From: Thermoplasmata archaeon
GTDB lineage: Archaea > Thermoplasmatota > E2 > DHVEG-1
Direction: 5' to 3'
DNA length: 64,000 bases
Assembly (NCBI GenBank): GCA_014894395.1
Contig: JADBLO010000094.1
Location: 346 to 64,345, forward strand
Positions 14,878-30,208 of the stretch are shown here, piece after piece. A program made the translations under genes and the position numbers. Position 1 is the first letter of the stretch. Each line of letters opens with the position of its first letter. The notes beneath the pieces are model-generated. The model saw only the letters and a list, made by a program, of their open reading frames with translations. It searched no databases and was not told where the DNA came from.

Positions 14878-14952
14878 ATTGGTTGTTCGATTGTACCACT
14901 TTGGAATGAAAATTGGTAATAATAACTCATGCTATACCTGATATGAGTAAAT

Positions 14953-14968
14953 ACTCATCTTTACCTTT
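14953..14968 (-). promoter_or_regulatory. Putative TATA-like box for the transcription unit starting at 14877.
   Basis: The reverse complement of cctttatatatctaaa contains atatataaag, about 80 nt upstream of the start codon, in a 122-nt intergenic gap. Confidence 0.2.
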
Positions 14969-14999
14969 ATATATCTAAATTTATCTCATTTTTATCCTG

Positions 15000-15908: not shown

Positions 15909-16756
15909 GTCTGCCGCCTCTTTGACAGTTCAATAGATGCTTTTTTATATTCTTCATCATTCGGTGGTCTGTAATGCCAGACATTATTATTTTCCATAAA
16001 TGAAACGCCTTTGCCTTTGATCGTATGGCAGATAATCGCGCCAGGGGTCTCTGATTCCTTCAGCCTTTGAATTGTTTGACAGATTTGTTCTTCATCATGT
16101 CCGTCAACCTCAAATGTTTTAAAACAAAAGCTTTCGAGTTTGTCTTTTAGGGAGTTAAATGAACAATAGGAATTGATGTCTTTGGTGCCGCCTAAACCAT
16201 TCATGTCTACCAGGACGCAAAGGTTATCAAGTTTCAGATGTCCTGCGAGAAGAAGTGCCTCCCAGTTAGACCCCTCATGGAGTTCTCCATCGCCGACAAT
16301 TACATATACTCTTGAATCAAGTCCTTTCGATTTCAAGCCGATTCCTATCCCAACCGCAACCGAAAGTCCATGTCCGAGAGCTCCCGTAGAGTGTTCTACA
16401 TATGGGACAAAGTGGCTCGCATGGCCACTTAGTATCGACCCGTTCTTATAGTATGTCATAAGCTCTTCATCGGATAACAGGCCTAAATGGTTTAATATAA
16501 CGTAAAGGGCTGCCGCCGAATGCCCTTTGCTGAGAATGACACGGTCTCTGTCGTCTCTTTTATCCTTTATTTTTTTGATATCAATACCCCTATACACTGC
16601 AGATAGAATTTCAATAACCGAAAAAGAGGATCCAATATGAGACGCCTTGGATTGGTAAATAATATCCAATACTCGTTTTCGTAGTAGATCTGTCTTCTGC
16701 GTCTCTTTTCGGCTGTCAATACTACTTCGTCCCATTGTTAATTCCCTTTCCTTCAT
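15905..16756 (-). CDS. Transketolase, N-terminal thiamine-diphosphate-binding subunit.
   Basis: GDGELHEGSNWEALLLAGHLKLDNLCVLVDMNG TPP-binding motif, plus HSTGALGHGLS. Confidence 0.88.
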   Translation of the reverse strand: MKERELTMGRSSIDSRKETQKTDLLRKRVLDIIYQSKASHIGSSFSVIEILSAVYRGIDIKKIKDKRDDRDRVILSKGHSAAALYVILNHLGLLSDEELMTYYKNGSILSGHASHFVPYVEHSTGALGHGLSVAVGIGIGLKSKGLDSRVYVIVGDGELHEGSNWEALLLAGHLKLDNLCVLVDMNGLGGTKDINSYCSFNSLKDKLESFCFKTFEVDGHDEEQICQTIQRLKESETPGAIICHTIKGKGVSFMENNNVWHYRPPNDEEYKKASIELSKRRQT

Positions 16757-17544
16757 CCTGTAATATCTTTCTTCTTCCTGGAGGGATGGTCGATTTTTAC
16801 AATACCAGTTCTGGCCTTAAGCCCCGATTTACCGTTATCCGTAATGATTAAAGGATAAAGTTTCTTCTCAACACAGAAACTGTAAAAGCCATTGGACCAA
16901 TCGAGGTCGTCAGCCATAATTAGGGCATTTGAATTCAATTTTTCCCATACTAACGTCATTTCTTGTTTTATAAAAGCAAACGAATGGTCACTATCATGGT
17001 TATACAGATCAATCTTCTCATTCAACCTTGGAATCTCTTCAAGACTATTTCCCCGTATGAGTGTCCACCGCTCTTTCTGGGCAGGATGAACGATAAAACC
17101 AATATCCAGTCCTTGGGGTATGTCCTCGGAATCACCCACTAAATAATGCCTCGACATTTTGTCATCCGAATTTCTTGGAAGATCAATGGAAATCAACTTA
17201 CCAAAATGATTCCTTCTTAATGCATTCAGAATAAAACAGGTTGTTCCTCCATAAAACACTCCGGTCTCAAGGCAGACGGAAGGTCGATTGAGTCTGACGA
17301 GAATGTATAAGATAATCCTTTGTATCGCAAACCAATCTACTGATTCCAGGTTGCTATGTCTGAATATACCCTTTTGATACGTGAGCCTTACCTTTTGAAT
17401 CTGTTCATTTATCTCGTCCAAAAACTGTTGATCTCCCAATAATTCCTTGTACAGCTGATCTATCTTTGTAAACTCTACATTGAGATAATCAGCTAAGAGT
17501 TCGAGACTCATTGTATTAAGCGAACGGCATAATGCTGGGTCCAT
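16753..17544 (-). CDS. Class I SAM-dependent O-methyltransferase (TylF/Methyltransf_24-like). The probable true start is Met12 at 17511.
   Basis: SVCLETGVFYGGTTCFI and LIMADDLDW motifs. An ATG at 17509-17511 sits 4 nt after the stop of the small upstream ORF. Confidence 0.7.
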   Translation of the reverse strand: MDPALCRSLNTMSLELLADYLNVEFTKIDQLYKELLGDQQFLDEINEQIQKVRLTYQKGIFRHSNLESVDWFAIQRIILYILVRLNRPSVCLETGVFYGGTTCFILNALRRNHFGKLISIDLPRNSDDKMSRHYLVGDSEDIPQGLDIGFIVHPAQKERWTLIRGNSLEEIPRLNEKIDLYNHDSDHSFAFIKQEMTLVWEKLNSNALIMADDLDWSNGFYSFCVEKKLYPLIITDNGKSGLKARTGIVKIDHPSRKKKDITG

Positions 17545-17719
17545 TTTTTGTTTCCCTCTTTACAAGAAATTCTCTTCTTTCCCTTAATCTCTCTTCGTTG
17601 CCTATGCGAACGCCCTTCGCTGTCCACACAGCCTGGTTAAAAGGGCCGTAAGCATTTACTATCTCAATCTGGTCGGCTGAGATTCTCTCATCCACTTTGC
17701 TAGAGAGGTGTACCATCAT
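17516..17719 (-). CDS. Small hypothetical protein (67 aa).
   Basis: ATGATGA overlap with the stop of the upstream epimerase gene, giving translational-coupling geometry. The ORF ends 4 nt before the Met12 start of the downstream methyltransferase. No recognisable domain. Confidence 0.3.
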   Translation of the reverse strand: MMVHLSSKVDERISADQIEIVNAYGPFNQAVWTAKGVRIGNEERLRERREFLVKRETKNGPSIMPFA

Positions 17720-18627
17720 TGGTCACCCAGAAAAGCATTCAAGTCACGTAAGCCCTGCTCGAGGTTGATTTTCGGCCCCCAATGGAGAAGCTCTTTTGCT
17801 TTCTTGTTTGAGACTGGTCTGATGCTTATGTTATTAGGAGTTGTCTCAACAATCTCGGGATTCTTATTCAAGATTTTCTTTGAAGTCTCAATTACTTCAC
17901 CGAGTCTTAAAAGCCTGTTGCCCTCAAGGTTTATTATATTGAAGCCAGGCAAGCCAATTGACTTAACAATGCCCTCAACGATGTCAGAAACATTGATAAA
18001 GCACCTTCCGGTCCGAAGGGATCCGACAGTAATCTTGTCCTGCGTCCTGACCTGGTTGAAAAGAGACTCAACAGCTGACCAATTGTCTTTCCTGCTGCCA
18101 TAGATTATGCCGAATCTCAGGATAGCCACAGGGCAGAAGCCGTGCTTTGAATTCTGGCGGAGATTTCCCTCTGAGACTAGCTTTGAAAGGGCATACTCAG
18201 AGGTATGGTTGGCGATATTGATAATTGAATCCTCTGTCTTTTCCTCCCCTTCAACAAAATTGTCATAAACCCATTCTGTTGATGCGAAAATAAACTGTTT
18301 GACATTCCTCTGCTCTGCTGCTTGCATCAAGTTCAGCGTTCCCATCACATTGATAGTGAAACATTCATATGCCTTGTTCTTGCAATCAGAGTCCCTTGAC
18401 AAGGCTGCGAGGTGGATGATTGCATCAGCGCCGTCTGGAATGAGCTCTGCAATCTCCGGCTTGTTTATGTCAGCTGAGAAATATTCTGACCGCTGTACCT
18501 TTGGCAAATCCACACAGACAGTCTTGTAGCCAAGCGAATGACATTTTTTCACAAGTTCCTTGCCAACAAATCCTTCTGAGCCGGTTATGAAAATTGTTTT
18601 CGGACGATGTGCCTTGTTTTCTTGCAT
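17716..18627 (-). CDS. NAD-dependent sugar epimerase/dehydratase/reductase (extended SDR).
   Basis: TIFITGSEGFVGKELV Rossmann motif plus a YxxxK region. The first ATG gives MQENKAH; the track start at 18639 is a TTG extension. Confidence 0.8.
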   Translation of the reverse strand: MQENKAHRPKTIFITGSEGFVGKELVKKCHSLGYKTVCVDLPKVQRSEYFSADINKPEIAELIPDGADAIIHLAALSRDSDCKNKAYECFTINVMGTLNLMQAAEQRNVKQFIFASTEWVYDNFVEGEEKTEDSIINIANHTSEYALSKLVSEGNLRQNSKHGFCPVAILRFGIIYGSRKDNWSAVESLFNQVRTQDKITVGSLRTGRCFINVSDIVEGIVKSIGLPGFNIINLEGNRLLRLGEVIETSKKILNKNPEIVETTPNNISIRPVSNKKAKELLHWGPKINLEQGLRDLNAFLGDQ

Positions 18628-18808
18628 TTTTATCACCAACAGCTGAATGTATTTTATTGGCCTTTAATCACATTTCATCTTCTGTCAACTTTCTGAGGTT
18701 TCCTTTGGGATTTGATGTAACCATGAGACGCGTATTTTTTTCATCAACCCTGAATTCAAGAGTGATTTTTATGAAATCCTTAATGGCGTCAAGTGTATTG
18801 GCATGACC

Positions 18809-19714
18809 TTAATGTATTTTTCTGAAGTATTCAATAGTTTTTTCAATCCCTTTTTCAATGCTAAACTTTGGTTTCCATCCTACATCTGCTTTAATCCTTG
18901 AAATATCTGCCCAGAAATCCATGAGGGGAGAATCCGCAGGTTTTCCACTTTCTGAAACATACCTTTCGTTTAAATTATATAAGCGATAGACCGTGTTAAT
19001 GATATGTAGAATCTCCGTGGAATACCCTGAACCAATATTGTATACTTCTCCCTTCATCTCCTTAGTGATTAGCAGGGAAATCGCTTCGGCCACATCTTCG
19101 ACGTATACGAAATCATTTCGAGAATGAGGGGTTTTAATGTTCGGATGATCACCTGAACGAATAGAGGTAATAATATGCGGGATAAGAGAATGACCTTTCT
19201 GCTCTGGCCCATATACGTAAAACAGTCGTGTCCAGATAAATTCCATGTGATTTTCCCGAGCGATTTCTCGCCCCATTAAATGTAATGCATGTTTTGCCGC
19301 GGTGAACGCGCTCGATGGCTTTACCACTGAATCTTCATCAAGTTTGCCAGATTTCTGTCCGTATTCCCAACAACTTCCAGTACAAAGAACACGTTTGCAA
19401 CCAATCTCAGCTAACATTACAATCAAATTCAAACCATAGATCAGATTTTTCATGCTGGTTTTATAATCATAGTTTGGAATGTCCCCCCATGCCATGTGAA
19501 TAGTTACATCAGGTTGAAATTTTTTAACCACATCTTTCCACGCATCGATATTTGAAAGATCTCCCACGAATGCCGTTATTTTTTTATGATAATCAGTAAA
19601 AGACGGTTTTTCAGATTCTTGAATCAATAAAAGTAAATCGTGTTCTTCCTCCATCAACTTTCTTACTACATGAGTACCAATGAAACCTGTTCCTCCAGTA
19701 ACGAAAATTCTCAT
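18809..19714 (-). CDS. NAD-dependent sugar epimerase/reductase (extended SDR).
   Basis: MRIFVTGGTGFIGTHVV. 301 aa. Overlaps the upstream cupin-gene stop by 4 nt. Confidence 0.8.
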   Translation of the reverse strand: MRIFVTGGTGFIGTHVVRKLMEEEHDLLLLIQESEKPSFTDYHKKITAFVGDLSNIDAWKDVVKKFQPDVTIHMAWGDIPNYDYKTSMKNLIYGLNLIVMLAEIGCKRVLCTGSCWEYGQKSGKLDEDSVVKPSSAFTAAKHALHLMGREIARENHMEFIWTRLFYVYGPEQKGHSLIPHIITSIRSGDHPNIKTPHSRNDFVYVEDVAEAISLLITKEMKGEVYNIGSGYSTEILHIINTVYRLYNLNERYVSESGKPADSPLMDFWADISRIKADVGWKPKFSIEKGIEKTIEYFRKIH

Positions 19715-20253
19715 TCTATTTCCAAACCCCTAAATTTTTCGACAAACTCTTTGAAGCTTTGCGCTTTCGAATCCTTCTCCGATAAGAGGGGATTAGACAC
19801 CGGCCATTTTATTCCAAGATCAGAGTCATTCCATTTAATAGTACCCTGACTTGTAGGATTATAGTAATTACTCATTTTGTACAGTAACGTGCAATCATTG
19901 GTTAAGGTGCACATGCCAAGTGCAAGACCTTTTGGAACGTACAGCATGTTTTTATTCTGTTCAGAGAGAATCGCGCTATCCCAGCAACCAAACATTGAGG
20001 AGTTTTTCCGTATATCAACAAACACCATAAAAATCTCCCCATGGACTGCTCTCACGAGTTTTGTTTCCGTGTTCGGTGGAAATTGAAAATGAAGCCCTCG
20101 TATCGTCCCTTTTTGCTTTGAATAGGAATGATTCTCTTGAACCCACCGCTGTTCTAAACCATGGTCTTGAAATAACGTATCATCATAGGTTCTCATAAAA
20201 AATCCCCTATGATCTTCGTGAACCTCTAATTCGATTTCAAAGACTCCCTTCAT
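19711..20253 (-). CDS. NDP-4-keto-6-deoxy-sugar 3,5-epimerase (RmlC-like cupin).
   Basis: MKGVFEIELEVHEDHRGFFMRTY is the typical RmlC N-terminus. The probable start is the Met at 20253, preceded by AAAGAAAG; the track start at 20289 is an extension. Confidence 0.85.
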   Translation of the reverse strand: MKGVFEIELEVHEDHRGFFMRTYDDTLFQDHGLEQRWVQENHSYSKQKGTIRGLHFQFPPNTETKLVRAVHGEIFMVFVDIRKNSSMFGCWDSAILSEQNKNMLYVPKGLALGMCTLTNDCTLLYKMSNYYNPTSQGTIKWNDSDLGIKWPVSNPLLSEKDSKAQSFKEFVEKFRGLEIE

Positions 20254-21511
20254 TTTTCTTTCTTTTATCTGCATTGTAGTCACAAACACTCATCATTGCT
20301 GGGGTATTCGGTAATGGGATGATACAGGTACCCGTATAATTAAACCTCTTTTTTAAAATCGTGATGATTTCGTCTGTGAAATTCCACGCTAAAATAAATA
20401 CACACTTCGGGTTTTTACTCATGACCTGTTCTGGGCTGTCAATAGGGATATGGGTTCCTGCGGTGTACCGTTTATGTTTCAAGGGATTCTGATCAGCGAT
20501 GAGAGAAATATATTGCGTGTCAATCCCACAATAATTCAGTAAGGTGGAACTTCGTGCTGATGCGCCATACCCAACAAGGGGTCCACTTGCATCAGTTACT
20601 TCTTTCATCATCTTTAATAATTGTTCACGATGAACATGAACTCGCCGTGAAAAATCTTGCCAGCTACTCAAATCATTAAGTTTCTTTTTCTGTTCGGTAT
20701 CTCGATATGATTGAACGGTGTGCGCCTCTGCTTCCTTGTTTTTTTTCACATATAAAATCAATGATCCACCACTAATCGGACTCTCATTGATATCAACCAC
20801 AAATAGTCCGAATCGATGCAACAACGCTTCAACACTTTTCAAGGTAAAATAACATAAATGCTCATGATAGATCGAATCATAATGCAACTCATCATAGATT
20901 CTTCCTGCATAGTGGACCTCCAACGCAAGTAAACCATCTGTTTCTAAAACTCGGGAAAGCCCGTCTACAAAATCATGAAGATGCGCCACGTGCGGAAGAA
21001 CATTCCGTGCGATCACCACTTTCGCCGGACCATGCTGCTTCAGTATTTCCTCTGCGACTTGAACTCCAAAAAAGCTGCATTTCGTTGGAATACCCTGTGC
21101 AATAGCTATCTTGACAATGTTCTCTGCAGGATCAACTCCAAGAACCAGATACTTGTTTTTCACAAAGGGCTGTAGAAATGTCCCGTCGTTACTCGCAACT
21201 TCGAGGACATATCCTTTATTCAAATCGTGAACGCGAGTGACAATTTCTCGATAAAACATCTGTGCATGGTCTTGAGCTGTATGAGACGTACCGGTAACCC
21301 AAACGTAATTTGAAAATAACTTCTTTGGATCGACCGTGTAATTTAACTGAACCAGATTACATTCTGGACACCAACTTAATGAAAGAGGATACAACGGCTC
21401 TTTTTCGGTTGCAGTTTTCAGTAGAGAATTGGCTGGGGGTTGGTTCCCAAGGTCGAGAAATTCGACGATATGTTTGTTTTCACAGACTCGGCAACATTTG
21501 ATGTGTGTCAT
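20237..21511 (-). CDS. NDP-hexose C-methyltransferase (TylCIII-like) with an N-terminal zinc ribbon.
   Basis: CRVCENKHIVEFLDLGNQPPANSLL, where the C4 ribbon is completed by CPECN, plus a class I methyltransferase core. 424 aa. Confidence 0.8.
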   Translation of the reverse strand: MTHIKCCRVCENKHIVEFLDLGNQPPANSLLKTATEKEPLYPLSLSWCPECNLVQLNYTVDPKKLFSNYVWVTGTSHTAQDHAQMFYREIVTRVHDLNKGYVLEVASNDGTFLQPFVKNKYLVLGVDPAENIVKIAIAQGIPTKCSFFGVQVAEEILKQHGPAKVVIARNVLPHVAHLHDFVDGLSRVLETDGLLALEVHYAGRIYDELHYDSIYHEHLCYFTLKSVEALLHRFGLFVVDINESPISGGSLILYVKKNKEAEAHTVQSYRDTEQKKKLNDLSSWQDFSRRVHVHREQLLKMMKEVTDASGPLVGYGASARSSTLLNYCGIDTQYISLIADQNPLKHKRYTAGTHIPIDSPEQVMSKNPKCVFILAWNFTDEIITILKKRFNYTGTCIIPLPNTPAMMSVCDYNADKRKKNEGSL

Positions 21512-21540: not shown

Positions 21541-23367
21541 TTAAGTGAAATCGGATTCGTTCATCGTATAAATTGCATCAGCATAATCTTTTGTTTTTTT
21601 AATGATAGGTACTTCGTCTATTTCTCGAGACTTAATGATTTTTTCGGTCTGTTTTGTAGAGCATTTCTTGTAGTCAATATAAAACTCTTTGAGTCGCTGA
21701 ATTCGCACCGTGTCGTTGATATCGACGTAAATATGGTAATCAGAGAGGTTTCGGACGTCTTCGATATCTAATGAGACAATTCCATCGATGATACCGATGC
21801 CATGCTCTTCGATATATAATGGGGTAGAATTTTTCTTTTGGGTGACCTGTCGTGTTTGTGAGTCATACACCGGAGGGTAGATTTTCTCCCCGTGTTTAAG
21901 GCGGGTGATTGTCTCCGATATTTTTGTATATTGATACCGCTCACGCACTGTTTCATTTCCTTTTCGTTCGTTGAGTCCAAGCAGCCAATTATCAAGAGGA
22001 ATAATAGTACTTGGGATTTTTTTCCCTTTGAGATCTTCTTGTATTTTTTTTGCAAGGATTGTTTTCCCGGACCTGCTGCACCCTGCGATTGAGACGATAA
22101 ATCTTGTTTTGTCTGACTTCATATAGGTTTCAAGTAAGGATTCAAATAAAGTATAATACGTATCAATTCGTTTGTTGGCTGTTGATCCAAGGAGTGAATG
22201 AACCACCTGTAGCAGATTTTTCTCTGGTGTCACTAGTATGGTCTTGACACCAGCAGCATTCCCTGCTTGCAGATCACGTTCATCATCACCGATAAAAACT
22301 GTTTTTGAAAGATCTAATTGATGATCCCGGGCAGCTTGGAAGAACATTCCGGGTTTTGGTTTCCTACATTCACAGTTTTCATCCCACCCATGAGGACAAT
22401 AGTAGATGCCATCGATCTTCGCCTTATTGTTGTGTAATTCTCTCTGAAGATGTTCATGGATACTGCGGAGATCCGACTCAGTCATTACACCCCGAGCAAT
22501 CCCTGCTTGGTTCGTGATAAGATAGACGTGATATCCATTTTTTGTGAGAAGTTCCAATGCTTCTATGGCCCCTGGTAGGAATTCGAATTCATTCCACTTC
22601 TTCACATACTCTGCTTTAGGTGGTTTTTTATTAATGACGCCATCCCTATCCAAGAAAATCACTTTCTTTGGCTGGAGGAATCTTTCTGTCAGTGGCAAAC
22701 GCTCTAATGACCCAATGCTATAATATCTATAATCCACCAAATATCCGGATAACTGATGATTTTCGATGAGTTTTGGAATGATGACATTCTGAAAAGAAAA
22801 ATTCTCACCAGGCATCCATTCTGTTATCTTCTTACTGAGAATGAAAAAACCGACATCTACCCCGTTGAGATCTTTCGCTTGCCTTGTTCGATCGTAGGTT
22901 ATGACATATCCTTTCTCATCCACAAACACATTATTTTTCGTTATTTTGTCTTTGTTCGTATATATCGTAACGCTTGCCATAGTCTTTTGTTTTTCATGGA
23001 ATTCCACAAGTTTCTTTAGATCCAACGGGAGATAATTATCGCAATACGTCAAGAGGAAAAACTCCTGGAGGAGCTCCTCTGCTTTTTTTATTCGTGTTCC
23101 GGTCTCATCTGAAAGATCACTTATCGAATATTTTATTTTCACTCCGAATCTTGAACCATCTCCGAAATACTCCGTGATTTTTTCAGGAAGATACCCGAGC
23201 AAGAGCACGATTTCACAGATTCCGTTTTCTTTCAACAGGCCTATGAGATATTCGAGAAATGGTTTCCCATTCATTAAAATCATTGGCTTTGGTACTGTAT
23301 CGGTCAGCGGTTGTAGTCTTGTTCCTCGTCCTCCAGCAAGGATTACAGCTTGTTTAACTGAAAGCAT
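21541..23367 (-). CDS. Tri-domain fusion: heptose-1-P nucleotidyltransferase (HddC-like), D,D-heptose-1,7-bisphosphate phosphatase (GmhB-like HAD), and a uridine-kinase/phosphoribulokinase-family P-loop kinase domain.
   Basis: N-terminus MLSVKQAVILAGGRGTRLQPLTD is the NTP-transferase domain. The middle has VIFLDRDGVIN...CECRKPKPGMF...FIGDDERD, the GmhB HAD motifs with a Cys/zinc loop. The C-terminus has IVSIAGCSRSGKTILAKKI...IPLDNW...KHGEKIYPPVYD...GIIDGIVSL...YHIYVDINDTVRIQRLKEF...KDYADAIY, which aligns motif-for-motif with Udk/PRK. Confidence 0.8.
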   Translation of the reverse strand: MLSVKQAVILAGGRGTRLQPLTDTVPKPMILMNGKPFLEYLIGLLKENGICEIVLLLGYLPEKITEYFGDGSRFGVKIKYSISDLSDETGTRIKKAEELLQEFFLLTYCDNYLPLDLKKLVEFHEKQKTMASVTIYTNKDKITKNNVFVDEKGYVITYDRTRQAKDLNGVDVGFFILSKKITEWMPGENFSFQNVIIPKLIENHQLSGYLVDYRYYSIGSLERLPLTERFLQPKKVIFLDRDGVINKKPPKAEYVKKWNEFEFLPGAIEALELLTKNGYHVYLITNQAGIARGVMTESDLRSIHEHLQRELHNNKAKIDGIYYCPHGWDENCECRKPKPGMFFQAARDHQLDLSKTVFIGDDERDLQAGNAAGVKTILVTPEKNLLQVVHSLLGSTANKRIDTYYTLFESLLETYMKSDKTRFIVSIAGCSRSGKTILAKKIQEDLKGKKIPSTIIPLDNWLLGLNERKGNETVRERYQYTKISETITRLKHGEKIYPPVYDSQTRQVTQKKNSTPLYIEEHGIGIIDGIVSLDIEDVRNLSDYHIYVDINDTVRIQRLKEFYIDYKKCSTKQTEKIIKSREIDEVPIIKKTKDYADAIYTMNESDFT

Positions 23368-23373: not shown

Positions 23374-24423
23374 TCACGTCATCCAGTACATCTTCTTGTT
23401 TACCTTTTTTTCATTCATCAGGTATTTCAATTGCAATGTGCGATTGCATTGTCTTCCCCGAAACATAGCTTCCGTGAAATGTATTTCATCAAAAAAAGAA
23501 ACAATCTCATTTCCGCCCCGAAAGAGATCCCACTCTGGTTTGTAATACTCTTTTAATACGGAAAGTATCTTTACAAACGAAACTCGGTATGTTCTGGCAT
23601 CTGATCCATGTTCGCCCGTATAAATTATAGTTGATCCCTTCACAACATTTTGTGCAGCTTCTGCGAGTTGTTTTACTGTAAAATTACCATCATTAATACC
23701 AACATTAAATGATTCATTTGAGATTAGTTTTTCTGGTGCTTCAATACCTGCAATAAATGCATTTGATACATCCCTGATATGGACGACGGGTCGCCATGGT
23801 GACCCATCGCTTTTTACTTCTATTTTCCCTGTTGTATAAGCACTAGCGATAAAGTTATTGTAAACGATGTCACATCGCAACCTTGGGCTTACCCCGAAAA
23901 CGGTCGATGGGCGAAAACATACAACGGTAAAATCATCATCCCCTAGCTTCTTCAATTCACATTCCGCATCCCATTTCGTTTTTGCGTACATCGTAATAGG
24001 ATTCTTTTCACTTGTATCCTCATCTAGTTCTTCATCTGTCTTTGCCACCCCGTACATACTTTGAGATGAAGAATATACAAAACGCTTAATTCCAATTTCT
24101 TTTGCCAATGTAGCCAATCTGATCGTTGCAACATAATTGATATCATATGTTAATTTTTGATTGAGTTCGCCCAATGGATCATTAGACAGAGCTGCAAGAT
24201 GAATGATGGCATCAATACCCTTCAGATCTGCTTTTGAGACCTTTCGGATATCTTTGTTAATTTGCTGTATATTAGTATCTAACTTCTTCAATTCGCAACC
24301 TTTGTAATAATCCGTGTCAAAACCTTTTACGGTATAGCCTCGATCTAAAAGGAGTTTTGTCAATATGCATCCGATATATCCTCTGTTCCCAGTTACAAGA
24401 ATATTCACAATATCCCTCCACAT
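23374..24423 (-). CDS. NAD-dependent sugar epimerase/dehydratase (extended SDR), a candidate GDP-heptose-modifying enzyme.
   Basis: NILVTGNRGYIGCIL Rossmann motif, SSSQSMYG, YAKTK. 349 aa. Confidence 0.8.
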   Translation of the reverse strand: MWRDIVNILVTGNRGYIGCILTKLLLDRGYTVKGFDTDYYKGCELKKLDTNIQQINKDIRKVSKADLKGIDAIIHLAALSNDPLGELNQKLTYDINYVATIRLATLAKEIGIKRFVYSSSQSMYGVAKTDEELDEDTSEKNPITMYAKTKWDAECELKKLGDDDFTVVCFRPSTVFGVSPRLRCDIVYNNFIASAYTTGKIEVKSDGSPWRPVVHIRDVSNAFIAGIEAPEKLISNESFNVGINDGNFTVKQLAEAAQNVVKGSTIIYTGEHGSDARTYRVSFVKILSVLKEYYKPEWDLFRGGNEIVSFFDEIHFTEAMFRGRQCNRTLQLKYLMNEKKVNKKMYWMT

Positions 24424-24428: not shown

Positions 24429-25022
24429 TTATTTCTTTTGTCTTTGTTGCTCTTCTCTGATTAATGATGTTAAAAGATGCTCAAGAAGCAGGTGAATGTC
24501 CTCTACGCGCTGCATATAATTACTCGGTGCATGGATGTTCTCTTGGGCGCATCTGAGTAATGCGCCTCCATCATATCCAGAAATACCTATAGTTATCCCT
24601 CTGTTTTCGTTTGCATATTTTATGGCTTTAACCACATTCGCCGAATTCCCACTGCCACTAATACCGATTATGACATCGCCAGGTTCCATTAAATTCTTCA
24701 ATTGTTCGACAAAAATATCATCATAGCTTGCATCATTTGCCCATGCCAGCATGGTTGGAATATTATCAGTGAGTGCAATCGCTTTAAACCTGGGAAATCC
24801 ATCGACAATGGTTCCTTTTGAAAGATCACTTACAAAATGAGATGCTGTTGAGGCACTACCCCCATTTCCCATTATAAAAATCGTTTTTCGTTCAGTTCGT
24901 GCTTTCAACAAAATAGTCGCAATAGTGTCCATTTTTTTTACAAGATCTCGCTCCATTACATTTAATATTGTGTGTATTTCCTTTAAATAATCCTTCGTAA
25001 ATTTTTCCCTGAAGTTATCCAT
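24429..25022 (-). CDS. gmhA: Sedoheptulose-7-phosphate isomerase (phosphoheptose isomerase, SIS domain).
   Basis: IFIMGNGGSASTASHFVSDLSK SIS motif. 197 aa. Confidence 0.85.
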   Translation of the reverse strand: MDNFREKFTKDYLKEIHTILNVMERDLVKKMDTIATILLKARTERKTIFIMGNGGSASTASHFVSDLSKGTIVDGFPRFKAIALTDNIPTMLAWANDASYDDIFVEQLKNLMEPGDVIIGISGSGNSANVVKAIKYANENRGITIGISGYDGGALLRCAQENIHAPSNYMQRVEDIHLLLEHLLTSLIREEQQRQKK

Positions 25023-25024: not shown

Positions 25025-26005
25025 TTAATCACTCACGTAGATAATTCTGCTTCCAGATGCCTCGAATGCAAATGTTACATCTTTCAAATCATGAAGTGCT
25101 TTTCTTACAAAATCTTGCTTTTCTTTTTCACAGTAGAACAACAAAAAACCGCCTCCTCCAGAACCCAAAATTTTCCCCCCGATTGCTCCAGCTTTTCGGG
25201 CTTTTTCATAATATGAATTGATAATAGGATTTGAGATTTTACTTGCGAGTTGTTGTTTGTACATCCATCCTTGATGAAGTATTTCTCCGAATCTCGTGAG
25301 ATCGTTGTTTCTTAATGCCTCTTGAAGTTCGCGAACCTGCTCAACCATTTTATCATAAATATGGAGTTTGTCTTCTGTTTTTTTAATTTGTTCCGTTAAA
25401 ATATCTCCTGATGTGATCTGTTTTCCCATATAAAACATAAGTAAATTTTCTTTTAATTTTTCTTTAATTTCTTTCTTGAAAATAATCGGATTCACTATGA
25501 CACTTTCATCTGCATTAAATTGTATATAGTTAAATCCCCCATATGCTGCTGCATATTGATCCTGTTTTCCGATTGGGTGTCCTAGTATGTCGATTTCAAT
25601 TCTACATGATTCCTGAGCCAATGTTTCAGCTGAGACATGTTCCCCTTTAAATGCATGAAGTGCGTGTAACGTTCCTACAACAATACTACTCGAAGCACCT
25701 AATCCGGATCCCTCCTGCGCTGGTAGAAGATCTGACATGTAAACGATTTCCAGTCCCTTCGTAATACCAGTCATTTTTAATGCATCCCGAACAAGATTAT
25801 GCTCGATCTCATCGACAGTTTTAACATATTCTATTTTTGAGTAGGCTACACGAATATTATCTGTGAATCTTTTATTCACGGTGATATATACATATTTGTT
25901 AATTGCAGTACTGATCACCGCACCGTGTCCATGTTGATAATATGCACGAATATCTGATCCACCGCCTACAAAACTCATTCGTAATGGTGTTCTTGAGATA
26001 ATCAT
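25025..26005 (-). CDS. hddA: GHMP-family sugar kinase, HddA-like D-glycero-alpha-D-manno-heptose-7-phosphate kinase.
   Basis: ISRTPLRMSFVGGGSDI N-terminus, the GHMP ATP motif PAQEGSGLGASSS, and a GGGGFLLF C-terminal motif. Confidence 0.8.
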   Translation of the reverse strand: MIISRTPLRMSFVGGGSDIRAYYQHGHGAVISTAINKYVYITVNKRFTDNIRVAYSKIEYVKTVDEIEHNLVRDALKMTGITKGLEIVYMSDLLPAQEGSGLGASSSIVVGTLHALHAFKGEHVSAETLAQESCRIEIDILGHPIGKQDQYAAAYGGFNYIQFNADESVIVNPIIFKKEIKEKLKENLLMFYMGKQITSGDILTEQIKKTEDKLHIYDKMVEQVRELQEALRNNDLTRFGEILHQGWMYKQQLASKISNPIINSYYEKARKAGAIGGKILGSGGGGFLLFYCEKEKQDFVRKALHDLKDVTFAFEASGSRIIYVSD

Positions 26006-26294: not shown

Positions 26295-27350
26295 TTATGA
26301 AAATAATAATCGTTTTATTTCTTCTTTTGAAATCGGTTTGACATCTCTTGACGAGTATCGACCTAAGCTACAATGCCGTGCATTGGGATAATCTGAGATT
26401 CCAAAACTAAGACTAGGCATCTCAAGCTGCGGAGGAATTATCAACATATCATCAGTCTCAAATCCTACTGCTGCTTCCGATTCGGTCATTAACTCTTCAA
26501 ACATTTTCTCGCCAGGCCGTAGTCCGATGATTCTTTTTTCAATGGTTTCTTTTTTATGATGATATTTTTCCGCGTATGCTTCAATGATAACGTCAACAAG
26601 ATCTCCTAGTCTGACGACCGGCATTTTCAGGATGAAGACTTCTCCTCCTTTTGCCAAGACTGTTGCTTTGAATACCAACTCAATAGTATCAGAGACCAAC
26701 ATCATGAATCGTGTCATTTCCGGGTTTGTAATCGTGATTGGTTTTTTTTGTCGAATCTGTTCTTCGAAAAGGGGGATAACTGATCCTCGTGAGAATGAGA
26801 CATTCCCGAAACGTACTGAAGAAAAAATCGTTGGTTTGACTCCTTTTCCCTCATTAGCATCGATAATAAGTTTCTCAGCAAGGAGTTTTGTTGCACCCAT
26901 AGTATTTACTGGGTTTACTGCTTTATCAGTGCTAATGTTAATGACTCGATTTACACCCGATGCAAGAGCTGCTTCAATAACATTTTTTGTCCCGAGAACA
27001 TTAGTTTTAATTGCTTCGAATGGATTGTATTCACAGAGTGGAACATGTTTGAGCGCAGCTGCATGGTAGACAATATCGATATCCTCCATGGCAAGTAAAA
27101 CTCGTTCTTTATCACGGATGTCCCCTATTAAGAATCTTCTGTCAGAGATTTCATGCATCATCTTAGGTCCGCTATTGTCTATCTCATGCATCATTCGAAA
27201 CGTATTATCTTCGTCATTACTGAAGATTCGTACGACCTCTGGTTTGTATTTTAATACGCTTCGTACGATTTCACTTCCGATGCAACCAGTTCCACCAGTG
27301 ACTAAGATTTTTTTTCCTCGAAAGATGTTTTCTAATTGTTTTTGCATCAT
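26295..27350 (-). CDS. UDP-N-acetylglucosamine 4,6-dehydratase (PglF/PseB/CapD family, Polysacc_synt_2).
   Basis: ILVTGGTGCIGSEIV, then HAAALKHV, then GATKLLAEKL. Confidence 0.85.
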   Translation of the reverse strand: MMQKQLENIFRGKKILVTGGTGCIGSEIVRSVLKYKPEVVRIFSNDEDNTFRMMHEIDNSGPKMMHEISDRRFLIGDIRDKERVLLAMEDIDIVYHAAALKHVPLCEYNPFEAIKTNVLGTKNVIEAALASGVNRVINISTDKAVNPVNTMGATKLLAEKLIIDANEGKGVKPTIFSSVRFGNVSFSRGSVIPLFEEQIRQKKPITITNPEMTRFMMLVSDTIELVFKATVLAKGGEVFILKMPVVRLGDLVDVIIEAYAEKYHHKKETIEKRIIGLRPGEKMFEELMTESEAAVGFETDDMLIIPPQLEMPSLSFGISDYPNARHCSLGRYSSRDVKPISKEEIKRLLFS

Positions 27351-28498
27351 GTTCCTCTACATCCTTTTTCAATCACAGAAATAATGTAATCCATTTCCTT
27401 TTTTGTTAAGGATGGATAGAGTGGGAGTGTAAGTACTTTTTCTGCTATTTCTTCAGTGACTGGCAAATCACTTTTTTTGTAGTTAAATTCTTTTATGTAG
27501 AATGTTTTCAGGTGAATCGGCTCGAAGTAGACTTTCGTCATGATCCCTGCCTTGGTGAGGTGTTGCTGCAAATGGTCCCTGGTTTTTTTATCAGGTAGTT
27601 CGATGGTGTAGAGCTGGTAGACATGATACTCACCTTTGGATTCAGCCGGTGTTCGTATATCCTTTATCTTTGAGAGTTTTTTTGTATAATACGCTGCTTT
27701 TTCTCTGCGCATTTGTATGATTCTGTTAAATTTCTTGAATTGTGAAAGCACGAGTGCTGCATTGATACTTGGCAGTCGGTAATTATAGCCTGCTTGGATG
27801 TAATCTAACTCTCGGGTGGTCGCGAAATATCCCTCTTTACTTTCGACACGACCATGAGAGCGAATCAGCTGGAGTTTTTCAGTAATAGCTTTTGAATCGG
27901 TGACAACGATGCCGCCTTCCCCTGCGGTAATGACCTTGTTTTGGCAGAAGCTGAACATCGCAGCATCACTGAAAGTTCCTACACGTCTGTTATGTATTTT
28001 TGCTCCCAGTGATTCTGCAGCATCCTCGATAAGTACGAGGTGATGATCTTTTGCGATTTCTTGTAACGCTTTGATATTTTTACAAGGTCCTCCGCCATAA
28101 TGAATAGGGATGATCGCTTTGGTTTTACTGGTTATTTTTTCTTTAACATCTTCAGGGTCAAGAGCATAGGATTGCTTCTCGATGTCAGCAAACACAGGCG
28201 TCGCACCTGTAAGGACGACGACGTTTGCGGTGGCGATAAAGGTAAATGACGGGACAATAACTTCATTTCCGTGTTTGATATCATAGGCCAGAAGTGTTGC
28301 ATGAAGCGCTGATGTCCCTGAGTTAAACGAAACTCCGAATTTTTTCCCAATAAAACCAGCGATGTTGTCTTCCAATGTCTGTATTTCGGGACCCATGGTC
28401 CAGTAACTTCCCCGTTTGATGACCTTGGTGACTGCGACGACATCTTGTGTATCCCAGTACATCTTGAAGAGAGGAATTTTCCAATTCATTTTTTTCAT
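27347..28498 (-). CDS. DegT/DnrJ/EryC1-family PLP-dependent nucleotide-sugar 4-aminotransferase (PglE/PseC-like).
   Basis: 383-aa DegT family with a PLP-lysine region. Overlaps the upstream gene by 4 nt. Confidence 0.88.
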   Translation of the reverse strand: MKKMNWKIPLFKMYWDTQDVVAVTKVIKRGSYWTMGPEIQTLEDNIAGFIGKKFGVSFNSGTSALHATLLAYDIKHGNEVIVPSFTFIATANVVVLTGATPVFADIEKQSYALDPEDVKEKITSKTKAIIPIHYGGGPCKNIKALQEIAKDHHLVLIEDAAESLGAKIHNRRVGTFSDAAMFSFCQNKVITAGEGGIVVTDSKAITEKLQLIRSHGRVESKEGYFATTRELDYIQAGYNYRLPSINAALVLSQFKKFNRIIQMRREKAAYYTKKLSKIKDIRTPAESKGEYHVYQLYTIELPDKKTRDHLQQHLTKAGIMTKVYFEPIHLKTFYIKEFNYKKSDLPVTEEIAEKVLTLPLYPSLTKKEMDYIISVIEKGCRGT

Positions 28499-28617
28499 CC
28501 TTTTTCTGTTTGTTTTCTCGAGAGGGGATACCTTCAGCCTATGATCAGATGGTGCCTGTGTCGGTTTTGTTGTAAGGACATATCTTATATGTCTTCAGCT
28601 AGGGAGACCACAGGACA

Positions 28618-29763
28618 TTATATTTTGACTTCGTCGCCGTTTCGTAACGCCTGTTCTACGTTCTTTCTCAGTCGCCATATCCCATCTCGCTTCTCAACAA
28701 TATCTCTATTAGCAAATCTATCAACGACTTTCCAGAAATCCTCCTCTTTATAATTGATATAATTAAGGAAATCTTTTAACATTTTCTTATCTAACTTCCA
28801 ATCTTCTTCGAGTACTTTTTCTACGACTTTTTCACGAGAGATTCTACCTTCTCTAATCCAAAGACTTCCGACCTCGGTCACTCGCTGATGCCCAAACTTC
28901 GGGAACTTAAACCAGGTATGAGTAAGATACCCGACAGAGTCAATCTGATCATATTGCTCTAAATACCCATCCCTTTTCCATTCCCCTGTGTCATCCAATG
29001 TCTTAAATCCTCTCGTCCGAGCGAATTCCATGTTTTTATAGCCACTCCAAGGCATATAATAACTAAGAAACCTTGGGTCTAGTTTTACTTTATTTATCTG
29101 TTCAAGAGTTGGAAATATCGCAGGATTAACATCTTTCATCGTAATTTTATCATCTAACCAAACCTCCCAGGGTACGGGCTTTGCAACATCATTTGTTATT
29201 TGCTTAATCGCACTTGGAGTCTCTTCTGTATGAGGTCCACCGTATAAATAATTCGTATCTTCTCCATAGATGACTAAGGGAATATTCAATTTTACTGCTG
29301 TTGAATAGGGATAAGCATAAATCGCTCTATCAAAATACCATGTAGGAGAACCAAGTTTCTCAAGAGCCTTACGAAACAAGGTCTTACATACCTGTGGGTT
29401 CAAAGACATAATATGCGCATCTACTCCGAATTCTTTGAGGAGATTATTCCAGTTATGCTCACCTGTTTTTGTCCAGGTAAAATTATTTACACTTACAATA
29501 AGAGGGTTCATATGTAATTTTTCTTTAAAGACATGTACCTGGAAATAACTATCTTTTCCTGAACTCGCTGCAATTATACAATCGTAATAATCTCCGTTTA
29601 TTCCTCTGTATTGATCAGCGAGCATCTCAAGTTCTTTCCATCTTTTTTTCCAATCAATTTTTTTTAATTGTTCTGCGACTCTACAGGGATAACATATTCC
29701 TTCCTTGTCAAATTTCATATATGGCCGTGAGTCCGGCATGACACATTTCTTACAATATCTCAT
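28618..29763 (-). CDS. N-acetyl-sugar amidotransferase (PP-loop ATP pyrophosphatase, WbuX/PseA family), the acetamidino-forming enzyme.
   Basis: N-terminal zinc ribbon CKKCVMPDSRP...CYPCR followed by the PP-loop IIAASSGKDS. 381 aa. Confidence 0.8.
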   Translation of the reverse strand: MRYCKKCVMPDSRPYMKFDKEGICYPCRVAEQLKKIDWKKRWKELEMLADQYRGINGDYYDCIIAASSGKDSYFQVHVFKEKLHMNPLIVSVNNFTWTKTGEHNWNNLLKEFGVDAHIMSLNPQVCKTLFRKALEKLGSPTWYFDRAIYAYPYSTAVKLNIPLVIYGEDTNYLYGGPHTEETPSAIKQITNDVAKPVPWEVWLDDKITMKDVNPAIFPTLEQINKVKLDPRFLSYYMPWSGYKNMEFARTRGFKTLDDTGEWKRDGYLEQYDQIDSVGYLTHTWFKFPKFGHQRVTEVGSLWIREGRISREKVVEKVLEEDWKLDKKMLKDFLNYINYKEEDFWKVVDRFANRDIVEKRDGIWRLRKNVEQALRNGDEVKI

Positions 29764-30197: not shown

Positions 30198-30208
30198 ATG
30201 CTTTCAAC

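Follow-up and report, generated by a model that had tools for sequence, protein, structure and literature searches.

The window analysed here, a stretch of 64,000 nucleotides from a Thermoplasmata archaeon, contains at 21541-23367 on the minus strand a genuine three-domain enzyme of an NDP-heptose operon of the 6-deoxy/C-methyl-heptose type. A nucleotidyltransferase, a GmhB phosphatase and a kinase of the PF00485 fold follow one another in a single ATG-initiated, uninterrupted ORF of 608 aa plus stop codon, and all three domains have kept their catalytic motifs. An earlier note, made from the letters of the sequence, had described this ORF as a fusion of an HddC-like nucleotidyltransferase, GmhB and a PRK/Udk-family kinase, and the ORF list, Pfam and NCBIfam agree with this architecture. 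Textbook heptose routes use a GHMP kinase (HddA) or a PfkB kinase (HldA/HldE). The C-terminal domain defines a third, unrelated kinase family that is found only in heptose cassettes, in many bacterial and archaeal phyla. We tentatively propose, with a probability of about 30%, that this kinase phosphorylates heptose-7-phosphate and thereby feeds the GmhB and HddC domains to which it is tethered.

The fusion and its domain arrangement

An identical protein (P0001) is present in NCBI, and the source annotations are limited to “uridine kinase”, “histidinol-phosphate phosphatase family protein” and “HAD-IIIA family hydrolase”. An assembly artefact joining separate genes was ruled out because the same fusion is carried by an independent JGI assembly of a near-identical strain (L090), in which the ORF is gapless and 93.9% identical at the nucleotide level, and by 22 further retrieved loci (23 of 84 loci fused). 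In addition, GC3 is uniform, with 0.39–0.40 in each of the three domains.

The AF2 model of the full-length protein has a pLDDT of 92.1 and a pTM of 0.67. Its only internal low-confidence stretch (pLDDT <50) is aa 395–398, which lies in the inter-domain linker (aa 384–404, 22156-22218, minus strand). Linker length differs between homologues, and in the model the kinase domain is predicted to be tethered to the GmhB domain through this flexible segment. When the full-length model was searched with Foldseek, the top 50 consisted of single-domain nucleotidyltransferase matches only, so that a PNKP-like HAD plus kinase architecture was discarded. Matches to designer pentatricopeptide-repeat proteins were spurious and originate from the helical segment between linker and P-loop.

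Nucleotidyltransferase and phosphatase domains

The N-terminal domain (aa 1–230, 22678-23367, minus strand) is a nucleotidyltransferase of the HddC/MurU type according to Pfam (PF00483, aa 7–140, 3.8e-21) and Foldseek, which places MurU (8hhd, TMt 0.90) and Yersinia pseudotuberculosis HddC (6jq8, TMt 0.86) close to it. The motif search confirmed the G-loop LAGGRGTRLQPLTDTVPKP at 23284-23340, of the G-G-x-G-T-R-L...K type. Among the NCBIfam models MurU scores 107.9 bits (cut-off 250), slightly above HddC (NF049965, 97.9 bits, cut-off 300), both below their cut-offs. That the domain would act on heptose-1-phosphate as HddC does, with specificity for GTP, is read from the operon context alone.

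The second domain (aa 231–394, 22186-22677, minus strand) is a GmhB-type HAD-IIIA phosphatase. It matches HAD and Hydrolase_like models in Pfam (aa 235–380, 2.3e-13 and others), exceeds the cut-off of the GmhB model NF006506 (184.1 bits, cut-off 178) and falls just under that of TIGR00213 (145.0 bits, cut-off 149.6). The DxD nucleophile motif FLDRDGVIN (22630-22656, D240-R-D242-G-V), the C-x-H...C-x-C zinc loop YYCPHGWDENCECRKPKPG (22348-22404) and the GDxxxD motif GDDERD (22270-22296, D361-D362...D365) are all present, and D240, D242, C324, H326, C332, C334, D361 and D365 are invariant in the homologue alignments. The association of GmhB with gmhA and a heptose-7-phosphate kinase is also found, with SIS and GHMP genes one to two genes upstream, an arrangement kept in most related loci. 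Domains 1 and 2 represent the last two canonical steps of NDP-heptose synthesis: GmhB would remove the 7-phosphate from D-glycero-D-manno-heptose-1,7-bisphosphate and the HddC/MurU-type transferase would then make the NDP-heptose.

The surrounding operon

All neighbouring genes considered here lie on the same strand as the fusion gene. Directly upstream, with its stop 6 nt from the ATG of the fusion gene, is a conserved extended SDR of the NDP-sugar epimerase/dehydratase family (23374-24423), preceded by a SIS-domain phosphoheptose isomerase that is GmhA-like (24429-25022; 95–116 bits with the gmhA models, below their cut-offs). The next gene encodes a GHMP kinase (25025-26005), whose best NCBIfam match is HddA (NF049969, 152 bits, cut-off 600) and which is the candidate heptose-7-phosphate 1-kinase. 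An HddA-like kinase is therefore encoded separately, as the earlier note had stated, with two genes (SDR and SIS) in between. Downstream follows a tailoring block (17716-21511) with the same gene order in related loci: an NDP-sugar C-methyltransferase (20237-21511), an RmlC-type 3,5-epimerase (19711-20289) and two SDRs (18809-19714 and 17716-18639). The block at 13010-17544 holds variable tailoring or transfer genes, namely a Methyltransf_24 protein (16753-17544), a transketolase-like split pair (15905-16756 and 15000-15908), a CmcI-type O-methyltransferase (14116-14877) and a GT2 (13010-14098); the near-identical strain L090 gives no alignment over 14903-17700.

Like the described four-enzyme heptose route, the operon has a GmhA-like SIS protein, an HddA-like GHMP kinase and domains of the GmhB and HddC types, with SDR, RmlC and SDR genes for tailoring after them. 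It differs in the fusion of GmhB with HddC and in the fifth, PF00485-type kinase, which has no counterpart there. In full-text literature searches we found no paper on HddC-GmhB fusions and none tying a PRK/Udk-type kinase to heptose clusters, in line with the earlier statement that the third domain has no assigned role in described heptose pathways.

Fold and conserved residues of the kinase domain

The C-terminal domain (aa 395–608, 21544-22185, minus strand) matches PF00485 over aa 424–600 with 6.6e-10 and 39.6 bits (gathering score 22), covering model positions 1–187 of 196. Modelled alone it reaches a pLDDT of 90.6, and Foldseek relates it to UCK2 (4.7e-12), Udk and PRK with a probability of 1.00 and TM-scores of 0.65–0.77. 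The best TM-score is to the FrcK-like 3c8u, a putative fructose-transport-system kinase (TMq 0.77), the best single-sequence PDB match is PRK (2.4e-10) and the best PDB match of the kinase profile is 1rz3 (3.6e-13).

The Walker A motif GxxxxGK[ST] (G429/G434/K435/T436), the catalytic Asp (D459), the acidic Walker-B residue (D528) and the lid arginines (R555/R558) are invariant or nearly so. The P-loop SIAGCSRSGKTI is located at 22057-22092, with G429, G434 and K435 invariant. The motif IPLDNWLL (21979-22002) carries the invariant Asp459, which aligns with the catalytic base Asp62 of UCK2 and with Asp57 in the LDD(Y/F)H motif of PRK and would act as base for the substrate hydroxyl. The adjoining family-specific motif NERKGNETVRERYQY (21925-21972) contains the invariant R468 and the nearly invariant R477; in the kinase-domain alignment Y480 is likewise invariant and R475 nearly so. 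The hairpin PPVYDSQTRQ (21847-21876) provides Y501, the counterpart of PRK Tyr103 and UCK2 Tyr112, and R506. The lid region INDTVRIQRLKEFYIDYKK (21664-21720) contributes R555 and R558 as Udk-like ATP/lid arginines; in the same alignment K567 corresponds to PRK Arg164 and the invariant F562-Y563 occupy the positions of PRK Arg159-Asp160. The motifs that had been named for this domain at the outset were all recovered, as Walker A SIAGCSRSGKT, PPVYD, IIDGIV and IYVDIND. P-loop and catalytic Asp are invariant in 37 fused homologues, down to 28% identity, which excludes a degenerate P-loop. By these motifs domain 3 appears to be an intact P-loop kinase of the PF00485 fold.

In PRK the phosphate of Ru5P is bound by Arg64, Arg67 and Tyr103, and Arg159-Asp160-...-Arg164 form a catalytic, Ru5P-binding loop (CrPRK numbering; bioRxiv 10.1101/422709). 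By aligning the present kinase with the UCK2 and PRK sequences, we placed its conserved arginines in the acceptor pocket. R468 maps to the phosphate-binding segment Arg64-Arg67, with two HMMER alignments disagreeing by 1–3 positions. With R468, R475, R477, R506 and Tyr501, the acceptor side would resemble the binding site for the distal Ru5P phosphate in PRK, and the acceptor is probably an anionic heptose intermediate.

The kinase domain is probably neither uridine kinase nor phosphoribulokinase

The udk and PRK models score the kinase domain with 48–60 bits, far below their NCBIfam cut-offs (PRK05480 58.6 vs 180 and TIGR00235 53.4 vs 220.3 for udk; PRK07429 48.5 vs 236 for phosphoribulokinase). 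Compared with human UCK2 and Thermus thermophilus Udk, the fold is the same (Foldseek E 5e-12, TM about 0.7), and Walker A, the catalytic Asp (Asp62 in UCK2), Tyr112 and the lid arginines are kept. However, UCK2 Asp84, which binds the ribose hydroxyls, corresponds to a variable position (Thr481 in this protein), His117, which reads the base, is replaced by the invariant Arg506, and heptose cassettes are the sole genomic context. Phosphoribulokinase likewise has the same fold, and putative counterparts of its Ru5P-phosphate ligands Arg64/67 and Tyr103 are present. In contrast to PRK, the kinase comprises about 200 aa without the C-terminal dimerisation half, carries an invariant Phe-Tyr in place of Arg159-Asp160 and does not reach the cut-off of the PRK model; the annotated part of the window shows no gene context of the PRK type. 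Because the specificity residues of both enzymes are replaced, the kinase appears from its alignment to be neither a uridine/cytidine kinase nor a phosphoribulokinase. Of the Udk/PRK assignment in the earlier note, the fold stands (PF00485, Foldseek) and the family membership does not: “Udk/PRK” seems to name the fold only, and the domain is best treated as a subfamily of its own.

The closest profile relative is 1rz3 (Geobacillus stearothermophilus RBSTP0775, a structural-genomics protein) of the PRK07667 “kinase” family, which is also the best NCBIfam kinase model, with 59.7 bits but a cut-off of 221. The N-terminal helix, the P-loop, a D-D/N-aromatic motif and an ER..GNE-like segment are common to both. 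We know of no heptose context for 1rz3.

Distribution and gene arrangements of the kinase family

At E<=1e-30 the kinase family comprises 122 clusters at 50% identity, and full-length tri-domain proteins make up 35 of the best 120 listed matching clusters. We retrieved 84 loci with the kinase, which divide into 59 with a separate kinase ORF, 23 with the tri-domain protein and two with a HAD plus kinase protein; HAD plus kinase proteins have about 390 aa. Separate kinase ORFs are located directly 3’ of gmhB in 36 of 59 cases, and in some loci they overlap or abut the stop of an hddC-gmhB gene. The kinase thus occurs fused to GmhB, as a separate gene abutting gmhB, or adjoining gmhA or hddA; in one large clade it lies directly upstream of gmhA. 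The tri-domain proteins themselves fall into two clades that are only about 30% identical to each other. In a metagenome profile scan homologues were traced down to 23% identity, and all with enough flanking sequence are located beside NT/HAD, SIS or GHMP genes. Four longer stand-alone kinase ORFs (L115, L116, L121 and L131) were inspected for extra N-terminal domains; none were found, and their length is due to mere stop-to-stop extensions.

The remote clade L147/L150 has kept NT-HAD-KIN, GHMP and SIS without RmlC or C-methyltransferase, and therefore the presence of the kinase goes with the core genes rather than with those for tailoring. On the other hand, three loci (L013, L025 and L037) with the same gene order and a 60–70% identical NT-HAD protein are without the kinase. 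The core set consists of GmhA, HddA-like GHMP kinase, GmhB and HddC, with the kinase as a conserved but optional fifth member of these NDP-heptose cassettes, and the fusion itself is not an essential feature. Using a jackhmmer profile we found the GHMP kinase in 25 of 27 well-flanked kinase-bearing cassettes and in 32 of 36 kinase-less ones, and the GHMP kinases of both groups are orthologues. Since the GHMP gene is retained in 25 of 27 kinase-bearing loci, a simple non-orthologous displacement of HddA by the kinase was rejected. The exceptions L118 and L140, two well-covered operons, have SIS, NT-HAD and kinase with no GHMP kinase within 14.5 kb; hddA may lie elsewhere in these genomes.

For partner genes we clustered the ORFs of 44 kinase-positive and 52 kinase-negative loci and applied Fisher tests. 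In this comparison no gene besides the kinase itself was strongly positively associated. Negatively associated ORF clusters were those confined to kinase-negative loci, and probably reflect lineage effects and shadow ORFs on the opposite strand.

Possible reactions of the kinase

Our proposal is that the kinase would convert heptose-7-phosphate to heptose-1,7-bisphosphate as a second, GHMP-independent route. The tethered GmhB would take over the bisphosphate directly and HddC would act next, forming an HldE-like kinase-phosphatase-transferase line that runs parallel to HddA and raises flux. In favour of this reaction is the Rosetta-stone pattern of a separate gene abutting hddC-gmhB versus the fused forms, and a precedent exists in PFK-2/FBPase-2, in which a P-loop kinase fused to a phosphatase turns a sugar monophosphate into a bisphosphate by phosphorylation at the anomeric hydroxyl; there, however, the kinase subfamily is unrelated, the phosphatase is a histidine phosphatase instead of a HAD and the function is regulatory, not biosynthetic. 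The two loci without GHMP kinase are as expected if the kinase can do the job of HddA (2 loci vs 0, not significant). Against it, the reaction would be redundant with HddA, retained in 25 of 27 kinase-bearing cassettes, because the retained GHMP orthologue must be the heptose-7-phosphate kinase in kinase-less cassettes, and the near-identical L013, L025 and L037 work without the kinase. Furthermore, the characterised PF00485 enzymes known to us phosphorylate primary alcohols, not anomeric hydroxyls. This last point would suit a rather unlikely alternative, in which the finished nucleotide sugar is phosphorylated, most plausibly at the primary 7-OH of NDP-heptose, and the O-phospho-NDP-heptose is transferred as such or used in further chemistry, so that glycans of kinase-bearing and kinase-less cassettes would differ by one phosphate. 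Presence and absence among otherwise identical cassettes is typical of optional glycan decorations, with HddA retained the phosphorylation by this kinase would be a second one of a different kind, a diphosphate could be accommodated by the Arg-rich acceptor side, and W461, Y480 and Y501 are aromatic residues that align where UCK2 lines its nucleoside pocket. Nucleotide sugars or nucleotide-linked groups are substrates of some P-loop kinases, such as the zeta toxins (UDP-GlcNAc) and Cj1415. Yet the kinase gene is grouped with gmhB, gmhA and hddA of the core instead of tailoring genes or glycosyltransferases and persists without tailoring genes, no co-varying GT, phosphatase or other partner was found, putting a 7-phosphate back beside a fused 7-phosphatase could start a futile cycle if specificity is not strict, and to our knowledge there is no O-phospho-NDP-heptose donor.

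A feeder or salvage/repair kinase, acting on the 7-OH of free sedoheptulose or D-glycero-D-manno-heptose to give S7P or heptose-7-phosphate, appears more doubtful still. The free sugar could arise from off-target hydrolysis by the tethered promiscuous HAD phosphatase, and such a role would explain two kinases per cassette (for C7 and C1), the auxiliary status of the gene and its position upstream of gmhA; the primary-alcohol chemistry fits the superfamily, as does the best TM-score to 3c8u (TMq 0.77), a protein whose own function is only predicted. The four conserved acceptor-side arginines, however, suggest an anionic rather than a neutral sugar, and neither a transporter nor an evident supply of free sedoheptulose or heptose was seen in the cassettes. 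The earlier note had considered both a sugar-phosphate intermediate and regeneration of the nucleotide used in activation; the alignment favours the former. A Udk-like nucleoside or nucleotide kinase that supplies the nucleotide of the transferase is improbable: UCK2 and Udk are the closest folds, JGI uses the name “uridine kinase” and, as in the base pocket of UCK2, Tyr501 and the aromatic character of position 480 are conserved, but the udk models stay at 53–59 bits against cut-offs of 180–220, Asp84 (ribose) is not conserved, His117 (base discrimination) has become an invariant Arg, an NMP product would be two steps from the NTP needed by the transferase, and the family is confined to heptose cassettes, with no housekeeping members. 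We give least credence to a PRK-like C1 kinase that converts S7P and ATP to sedoheptulose-1,7-bisphosphate and so diverts or regulates the S7P pool, or to a non-catalytic ATP-binding regulatory domain. PRK is the best single-sequence PDB match (2.4e-10) and its phosphate-site Arg/Tyr counterparts may be kept; against this stand the invariant Phe-Tyr at Arg159-Asp160, the low PRK07429 score (48.5 vs 236) and the loss of sedoheptulose-1,7-bisphosphate from the pathway because it is not a GmhA substrate. The invariant Lys435, Asp459, acidic Walker-B residue and lid arginines argue for catalysis and against a purely regulatory domain.

Relation to known systems

A kinase fused to the nucleotidyltransferase of its own sugar-activation pathway is known from Escherichia coli HldE, a bifunctional heptose-7-phosphate kinase/heptose-1-phosphate adenylyltransferase, and from other kinase-pyrophosphorylase fusions such as Bacteroides FKP and AmgK-MurU. 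HldE combines a PfkB/ribokinase-fold kinase with a cytidylyltransferase-fold transferase, serves the beta-anomer/ADP route and has no phosphatase domain, whereas the present protein carries a P-loop kinase of the PF00485 fold, alongside which the operon encodes a dedicated GHMP kinase.

LPS cores, capsules, S-layers and archaeal N-glycans are built in part from nucleotide-activated heptoses. A heptose is present in the glycans of Thermoplasmatales (PMC12448462), and the innate-immune sensor ALPK1 has NDP-heptoses as ligands, with heptose bisphosphate as a further innate-immune agonist (PMC11461863). The kinase may be a new analogous heptose-phosphate kinase, may act in salvage or may produce a phosphorylated sugar nucleotide that is new. 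O-phosphorylation of a nucleotide-activated heptose, e.g. at O-7, would be a reaction absent from every described heptose pathway; should this not very likely case hold, it would imply a new class of phospho-NDP-heptose metabolites and phospho-heptose surface glycans in diverse uncultured bacteria and archaea, and such a metabolite would matter more widely, since NDP-heptoses and heptose bisphosphate are innate-immune agonists (PMC11461863). The tri-domain protein could in addition serve as a compact biocatalyst for NDP-heptoses. For annotation, the family definition corrects a systematic error: its stand-alone members are named “uridine kinase” by JGI and the fused ones are hidden in “HAD-IIIA family hydrolase” entries.

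A single gene encodes three domains

The gene at 21541–23367 on the minus strand is one ORF with an ATG start and encodes 608 aa. Pfam assigns three separate, non-overlapping regions to this protein: an NTP_transferase domain (aa 7–140, 3.8e-21), HAD-type hydrolase models (aa 235–380) and the PRK/uridine-kinase family PF00485 (aa 424–600, 39.6 bits; gathering score 22). The middle domain exceeds the curated cut-off of the NCBIfam GmhB model NF006506 (184.1 vs 178). The N-terminal domain reaches 107.9 bits with the MurU model and 97.9 bits with the HddC model, each under its cut-off; fold and context, not the curated model, are the grounds for calling it HddC-type. No model stands out for the C-terminal domain, for which ‘kinase’ PRK07667, udk, PRK and FrcK-like models give similar scores (45–60 bits, all far under the cut-offs). 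Catalytic motifs are intact in all three domains. The transferase has LAGGRGTRLQPLTDTVPKP; the GmhB domain has FLDRDGVIN, GDDERD and the Cys/His zinc loop; and the kinase has SIAGCSRSGKT (Walker A), LDNW, PPVYD and IIDG together with its lid arginines. The fusion of an HddC-like transferase, GmhB and a PRK/Udk-fold kinase that the earlier note had read from the DNA is thus confirmed, and its GmhB and HddC-type domains are ordinary. In the full-length model confidence is high inside each domain (pLDDT 92.1); a pTM of 0.67 and a disordered linker at 395–398 suggest a tethered kinase without rigid packing. Designer pentatricopeptide-repeat structures in the PDB matched window 22120–22185 (aa 395–417; E 1e-10 to 1e-5), the helix between linker and P-loop; these are weak repeated matches summed and do not indicate homology.

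An assembly artefact joining separate genes could be ruled out. GC3 is uniform over all three domains (0.39–0.40), and an independent JGI metagenome assembly (locus L090) contains this gene too (93.9% nucleotide identity), gapless and in the same uninterrupted frame. Moreover, 23 of the 84 kinase-bearing loci retrieved have the single-ORF tri-domain form. These include a remote clade (L145–L151) whose kinase is 23–26% and whose transferase-HAD part is about 30–35% identical to the window protein. An identical protein from a Thermoplasmata MAG is present at NCBI (P0001), and full-length tri-domain proteins account for 35 of the 120 best-listed match clusters (47–78% identity).

The fusion gene lies in a heptose operon

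The operon is long, lies on the minus strand and leaves little space around the fusion gene; in gene order it contains an HddA-like GHMP kinase (25025–26005), followed by a GmhA-like SIS protein (24429–25022) and an extended SDR (23374–24423), which ends 6 nt before the fusion gene. The separate HddA-like kinase noted earlier two genes from the fusion is therefore present, with SIS and SDR between. An NDP-sugar C-methyltransferase gene (20237–21511) starts 29 nt after the fusion gene and is followed by an RmlC-type 3,5-epimerase (19711–20289), two SDRs, a methyltransferase, a split transketolase-like pair, a CmcI-type O-methyltransferase and a GT2. The listed RmlC ORF (GTG start at 20289) shares 53 nt (20237–20289) with the end of the C-methyltransferase ORF; translation of RmlC probably starts at an internal Met a few codons further on.

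The described GDP-heptose route runs from GmhA via HddA and GmhB to HddC, with subsequent tailoring by dehydratase, epimerase and reductase (PMC10680097), and the operon has the same gene content. Heptose is a constituent of Thermoplasmatales surface glycans (PMC12448462). We consider the operon a variant of the known GDP-heptose/6-deoxyheptose system that differs by the PF00485 kinase and has additional C-methyl and possibly two-carbon-branch modifications.

In the transketolase/DXP-synthase-like pair (15000–16756, minus strand) the N- and C-terminal halves are separate genes inside the sugar operon. E1_dh and Transketolase_C pairs also occur in the related cassettes L004, L008, L056 and L108, which points to ThDP-dependent addition of a two-carbon branch to the heptose and away from a role in central metabolism. 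The heptose operons of L090 and the window are collinear (about 94–95% DNA identity). Window 14903–17700 (vs 11486–13405 of L090), containing a Methyltransf_24 gene and the split pair, is unaligned, suggesting that a tailoring module was exchanged between these close relatives.

The kinase family is found in heptose cassettes

Searching with the kinase domain only, we found stand-alone proteins of 192–231 aa with 45–61% identity. In L001, L002 and L004 their genes are located directly 3’ of a two-domain hddC-gmhB gene in the order GHMP – SIS – SDR – [transferase+HAD] – kinase – RmlC; the kinase start overlaps the hddC-gmhB stop in the first two loci and lies 10 nt past it in the third. When 1.84 billion representatives were searched exhaustively with a kinase profile, 122 clusters matched at E≤1e-30 and 505 at E≤1e-10. 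Most matches are about 200 aa long, some of about 390 aa are HAD+kinase proteins, and tri-domain proteins (590–640 aa) make up 13 of the 150 best. A metagenome scan with the same profile yielded 71 loci.

Among homologues with enough flanking sequence, all real ones, down to 23% identity, are located beside transferase/HAD, SIS or GHMP genes. The heptose context is missing solely from weak matches confined to the P-loop region (L154–L160). The kinase takes one of four positions. It is fused to gmhB or adjoins it; it immediately precedes gmhA (a large Bacteroidota/Chlorobiota/Desulfobacterota clade); it immediately precedes hddA (L117, L121, L131); or it is part of a fusion with hddA as the next gene (L145–L151). 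This last, remote clade keeps the transferase-HAD-kinase, GHMP, SIS and SDR genes and lacks RmlC and the C-methyltransferase, so it is the core pathway, rather than the tailoring genes, that the kinase accompanies. This PF00485 kinase forms a family of its own and is a new, fifth component of heptose cassettes, found only there in this analysis. Databases label it ‘uridine kinase’ or conceal it in entries named ‘HAD-IIIA family hydrolase’ or ‘GmhB’, and a full-text literature search returned no paper on a heptose-cassette PF00485 kinase family. It overturns nothing, and offers enzymologists and glycobiologists a clear, directly testable lead.

The kinase is an optional component

The two-domain HddC-GmhB fusion (about 400 aa without the kinase) is very widespread among uncultured lineages, with 219 confirmed stretches in species-representative genomes. 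It is usually annotated as GmhB or HAD-IIIA hydrolase only, so the transferase half is overlooked. The best 80 of these stretches (L010–L089) come from Patescibacteria/CPR, DPANN archaea, Acidobacteriota, Verrucomicrobiota, Omnitrophota, Chlamydiales and others, and only 14 of the 80 carry the kinase. The carriers are archaea (Thermoplasmatales, other Euryarchaeota, Woesearchaeota) and bacteria (Bdellovibrionota, Desulfobacter, Thermodesulfobacteriota, Bacteroidia, Chitinophagaceae, Chlorobiota, Acidobacteria and a ‘Proteobacteria’ MAG); protein matches also came from Chloroflexota, Altiarchaeales and Desulfobacterium members. Close relatives, for example L013, L025 and L037, have the gene order of the window, GHMP-SIS-SDR-[transferase-HAD]-C-methyltransferase-RmlC-SDR, with the kinase absent.

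Considering only loci flanked on each side by 5 kb or more, a GHMP kinase is present in 25 of 27 kinase-bearing and 32 of 36 kinase-less cassettes. The kinase is hence additional to, and co-occurs with, HddA, is associated with the core genes and is optional in NDP-heptose cassettes. The two kinase-bearing exceptions (L118:5547–11845 and L140:1473–9127) comprise SIS/GmhA, transferase-HAD, kinase, C-methyltransferase, RmlC, SDR, a GDP-mannose-dehydratase-type SDR (4,6-dehydratase) and a B12-binding radical-SAM enzyme; a GHMP kinase is absent from these operons across 14.5 kb. Apart from these two kinase-bearing loci, none combines the presence of SIS with the absence of GHMP. When kinase-bearing and kinase-less loci were compared (44 vs 52), no other gene showed a strong positive association with the kinase.

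Predicted active site of the kinase

The P-loop is not degenerate, as the earlier note had allowed it might be: G429, G434 and K435 are invariant in 37 fused homologues down to 28% identity, as are D459, R468, G529, L533, R581 and E585, with W461, R477, Y501, R506, R558, Y563 and K567 nearly invariant. The confident domain model (pLDDT 90.6) superposes on UCK2, Thermus Udk, PRK and the FrcK-like 3c8u; the best PDB profile match is 1rz3, a structure with no assigned function. In the HMMER alignment to UCK2, Asp459 and Tyr501 correspond to Asp62 and Tyr112, Asp84 falls on a variable position and His117 on Arg506; Asp62, Asp84 and His117 of UCK2 are the catalytic base, a ribose ligand and a base-reading residue. 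In PRK the phosphate of Ru5P is bound by Arg64, Arg67 and Tyr103 (bioRxiv 10.1101/422709). R468 lies approximately within the Arg64–Arg67 segment, where the two HMMER alignments differ by 1–3 positions, and Y501 corresponds to Tyr103, and the catalytic/Ru5P-binding loop Arg159-Asp160 is a conserved Phe-Tyr in the kinase family. Since the specificity positions of both enzymes (Asp84, His117, Arg159-Asp160) are replaced, the domain is predicted to be a competent hydroxyl kinase that is neither Udk nor PRK; the earlier family assignment stands for the fold, supported by superposition and PF00485, and fails for either enzyme identity. Extra conserved arginines that the alignment places on the acceptor side suggest an anionic acceptor.

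Possible reaction of the kinase

We infer that the acceptor is a phosphorylated heptose intermediate. As a tentative proposal (probability about 0.3), the kinase would phosphorylate heptose-7-phosphate at O-1 and hand the product to the tethered GmhB and then HddC, making the fusion protein an HldE-like assembly line parallel to HddA. We favor this because a kinase that is fused to a sugar nucleotidyltransferase usually produces the sugar-1-phosphate used by that transferase (HldE, FKP, AmgK-MurU), because in PFK-2/FBPase-2 a P-loop kinase that phosphorylates an anomeric hydroxyl is likewise fused to a phosphatase, and because L118 and L140 lack a GHMP kinase. A PRK-like geometry would also fit, the distal phosphate being gripped by Arg/Tyr and O-1 presented to ATP. 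The chief argument against the proposal is that HddA is retained, which would make this activity redundant. A decoration kinase producing O-phospho-NDP-heptose would agree with the optional presence and with primary-alcohol chemistry but is mismatched with the core-gene neighborhood, and we regard it as unlikely.

Doubtful to a higher degree is a salvage or feeder kinase acting on free sedoheptulose or heptose, which accounts for two kinases and for the position beside gmhA but poorly matches the arginine-rich site. Of the functions suggested earlier, sugar-phosphate phosphorylation is favored by the conserved acceptor-side arginines; nucleoside or nucleotide phosphorylation for NTP supply is highly improbable, with the Udk specificity residues missing and a distribution limited to the cassettes. 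A C1-kinase for S7P, or a non-catalytic domain, ranks lowest.

Other genes in the window

A nonulosonic-acid operon adjoins the heptose operon (26295–36093, minus strand). It encodes a PseB-like 4,6-dehydratase, a DegT aminotransferase, a hexapeptide acetyltransferase, NeuC, an SDR, a GFO/IDH oxidoreductase, a CMP-transferase, a WbuX N-acetyl-sugar amidotransferase (28618–29763, minus strand, 324 bits), NeuB (minus strand, 438 bits) and a second, divergent NeuB paralogue (35032–36093, minus strand, 154 bits). On the plus strand, two paralogous GlmU-like nucleotidyltransferase and hexapeptide-repeat genes (7047–8249 and 10058–11284) enclose a GlmS-type amidotransferase (8251–10065). A Wzx-type flippase comes next (11345–12970). 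The GC skew changes sign near 36 kb (about 36000–38000), where the minus-strand gene run (13010–37745) gives way to plus-strand genes (from 37807). This most likely reflects gene-strand bias, and a replication feature is unnecessary as an explanation.
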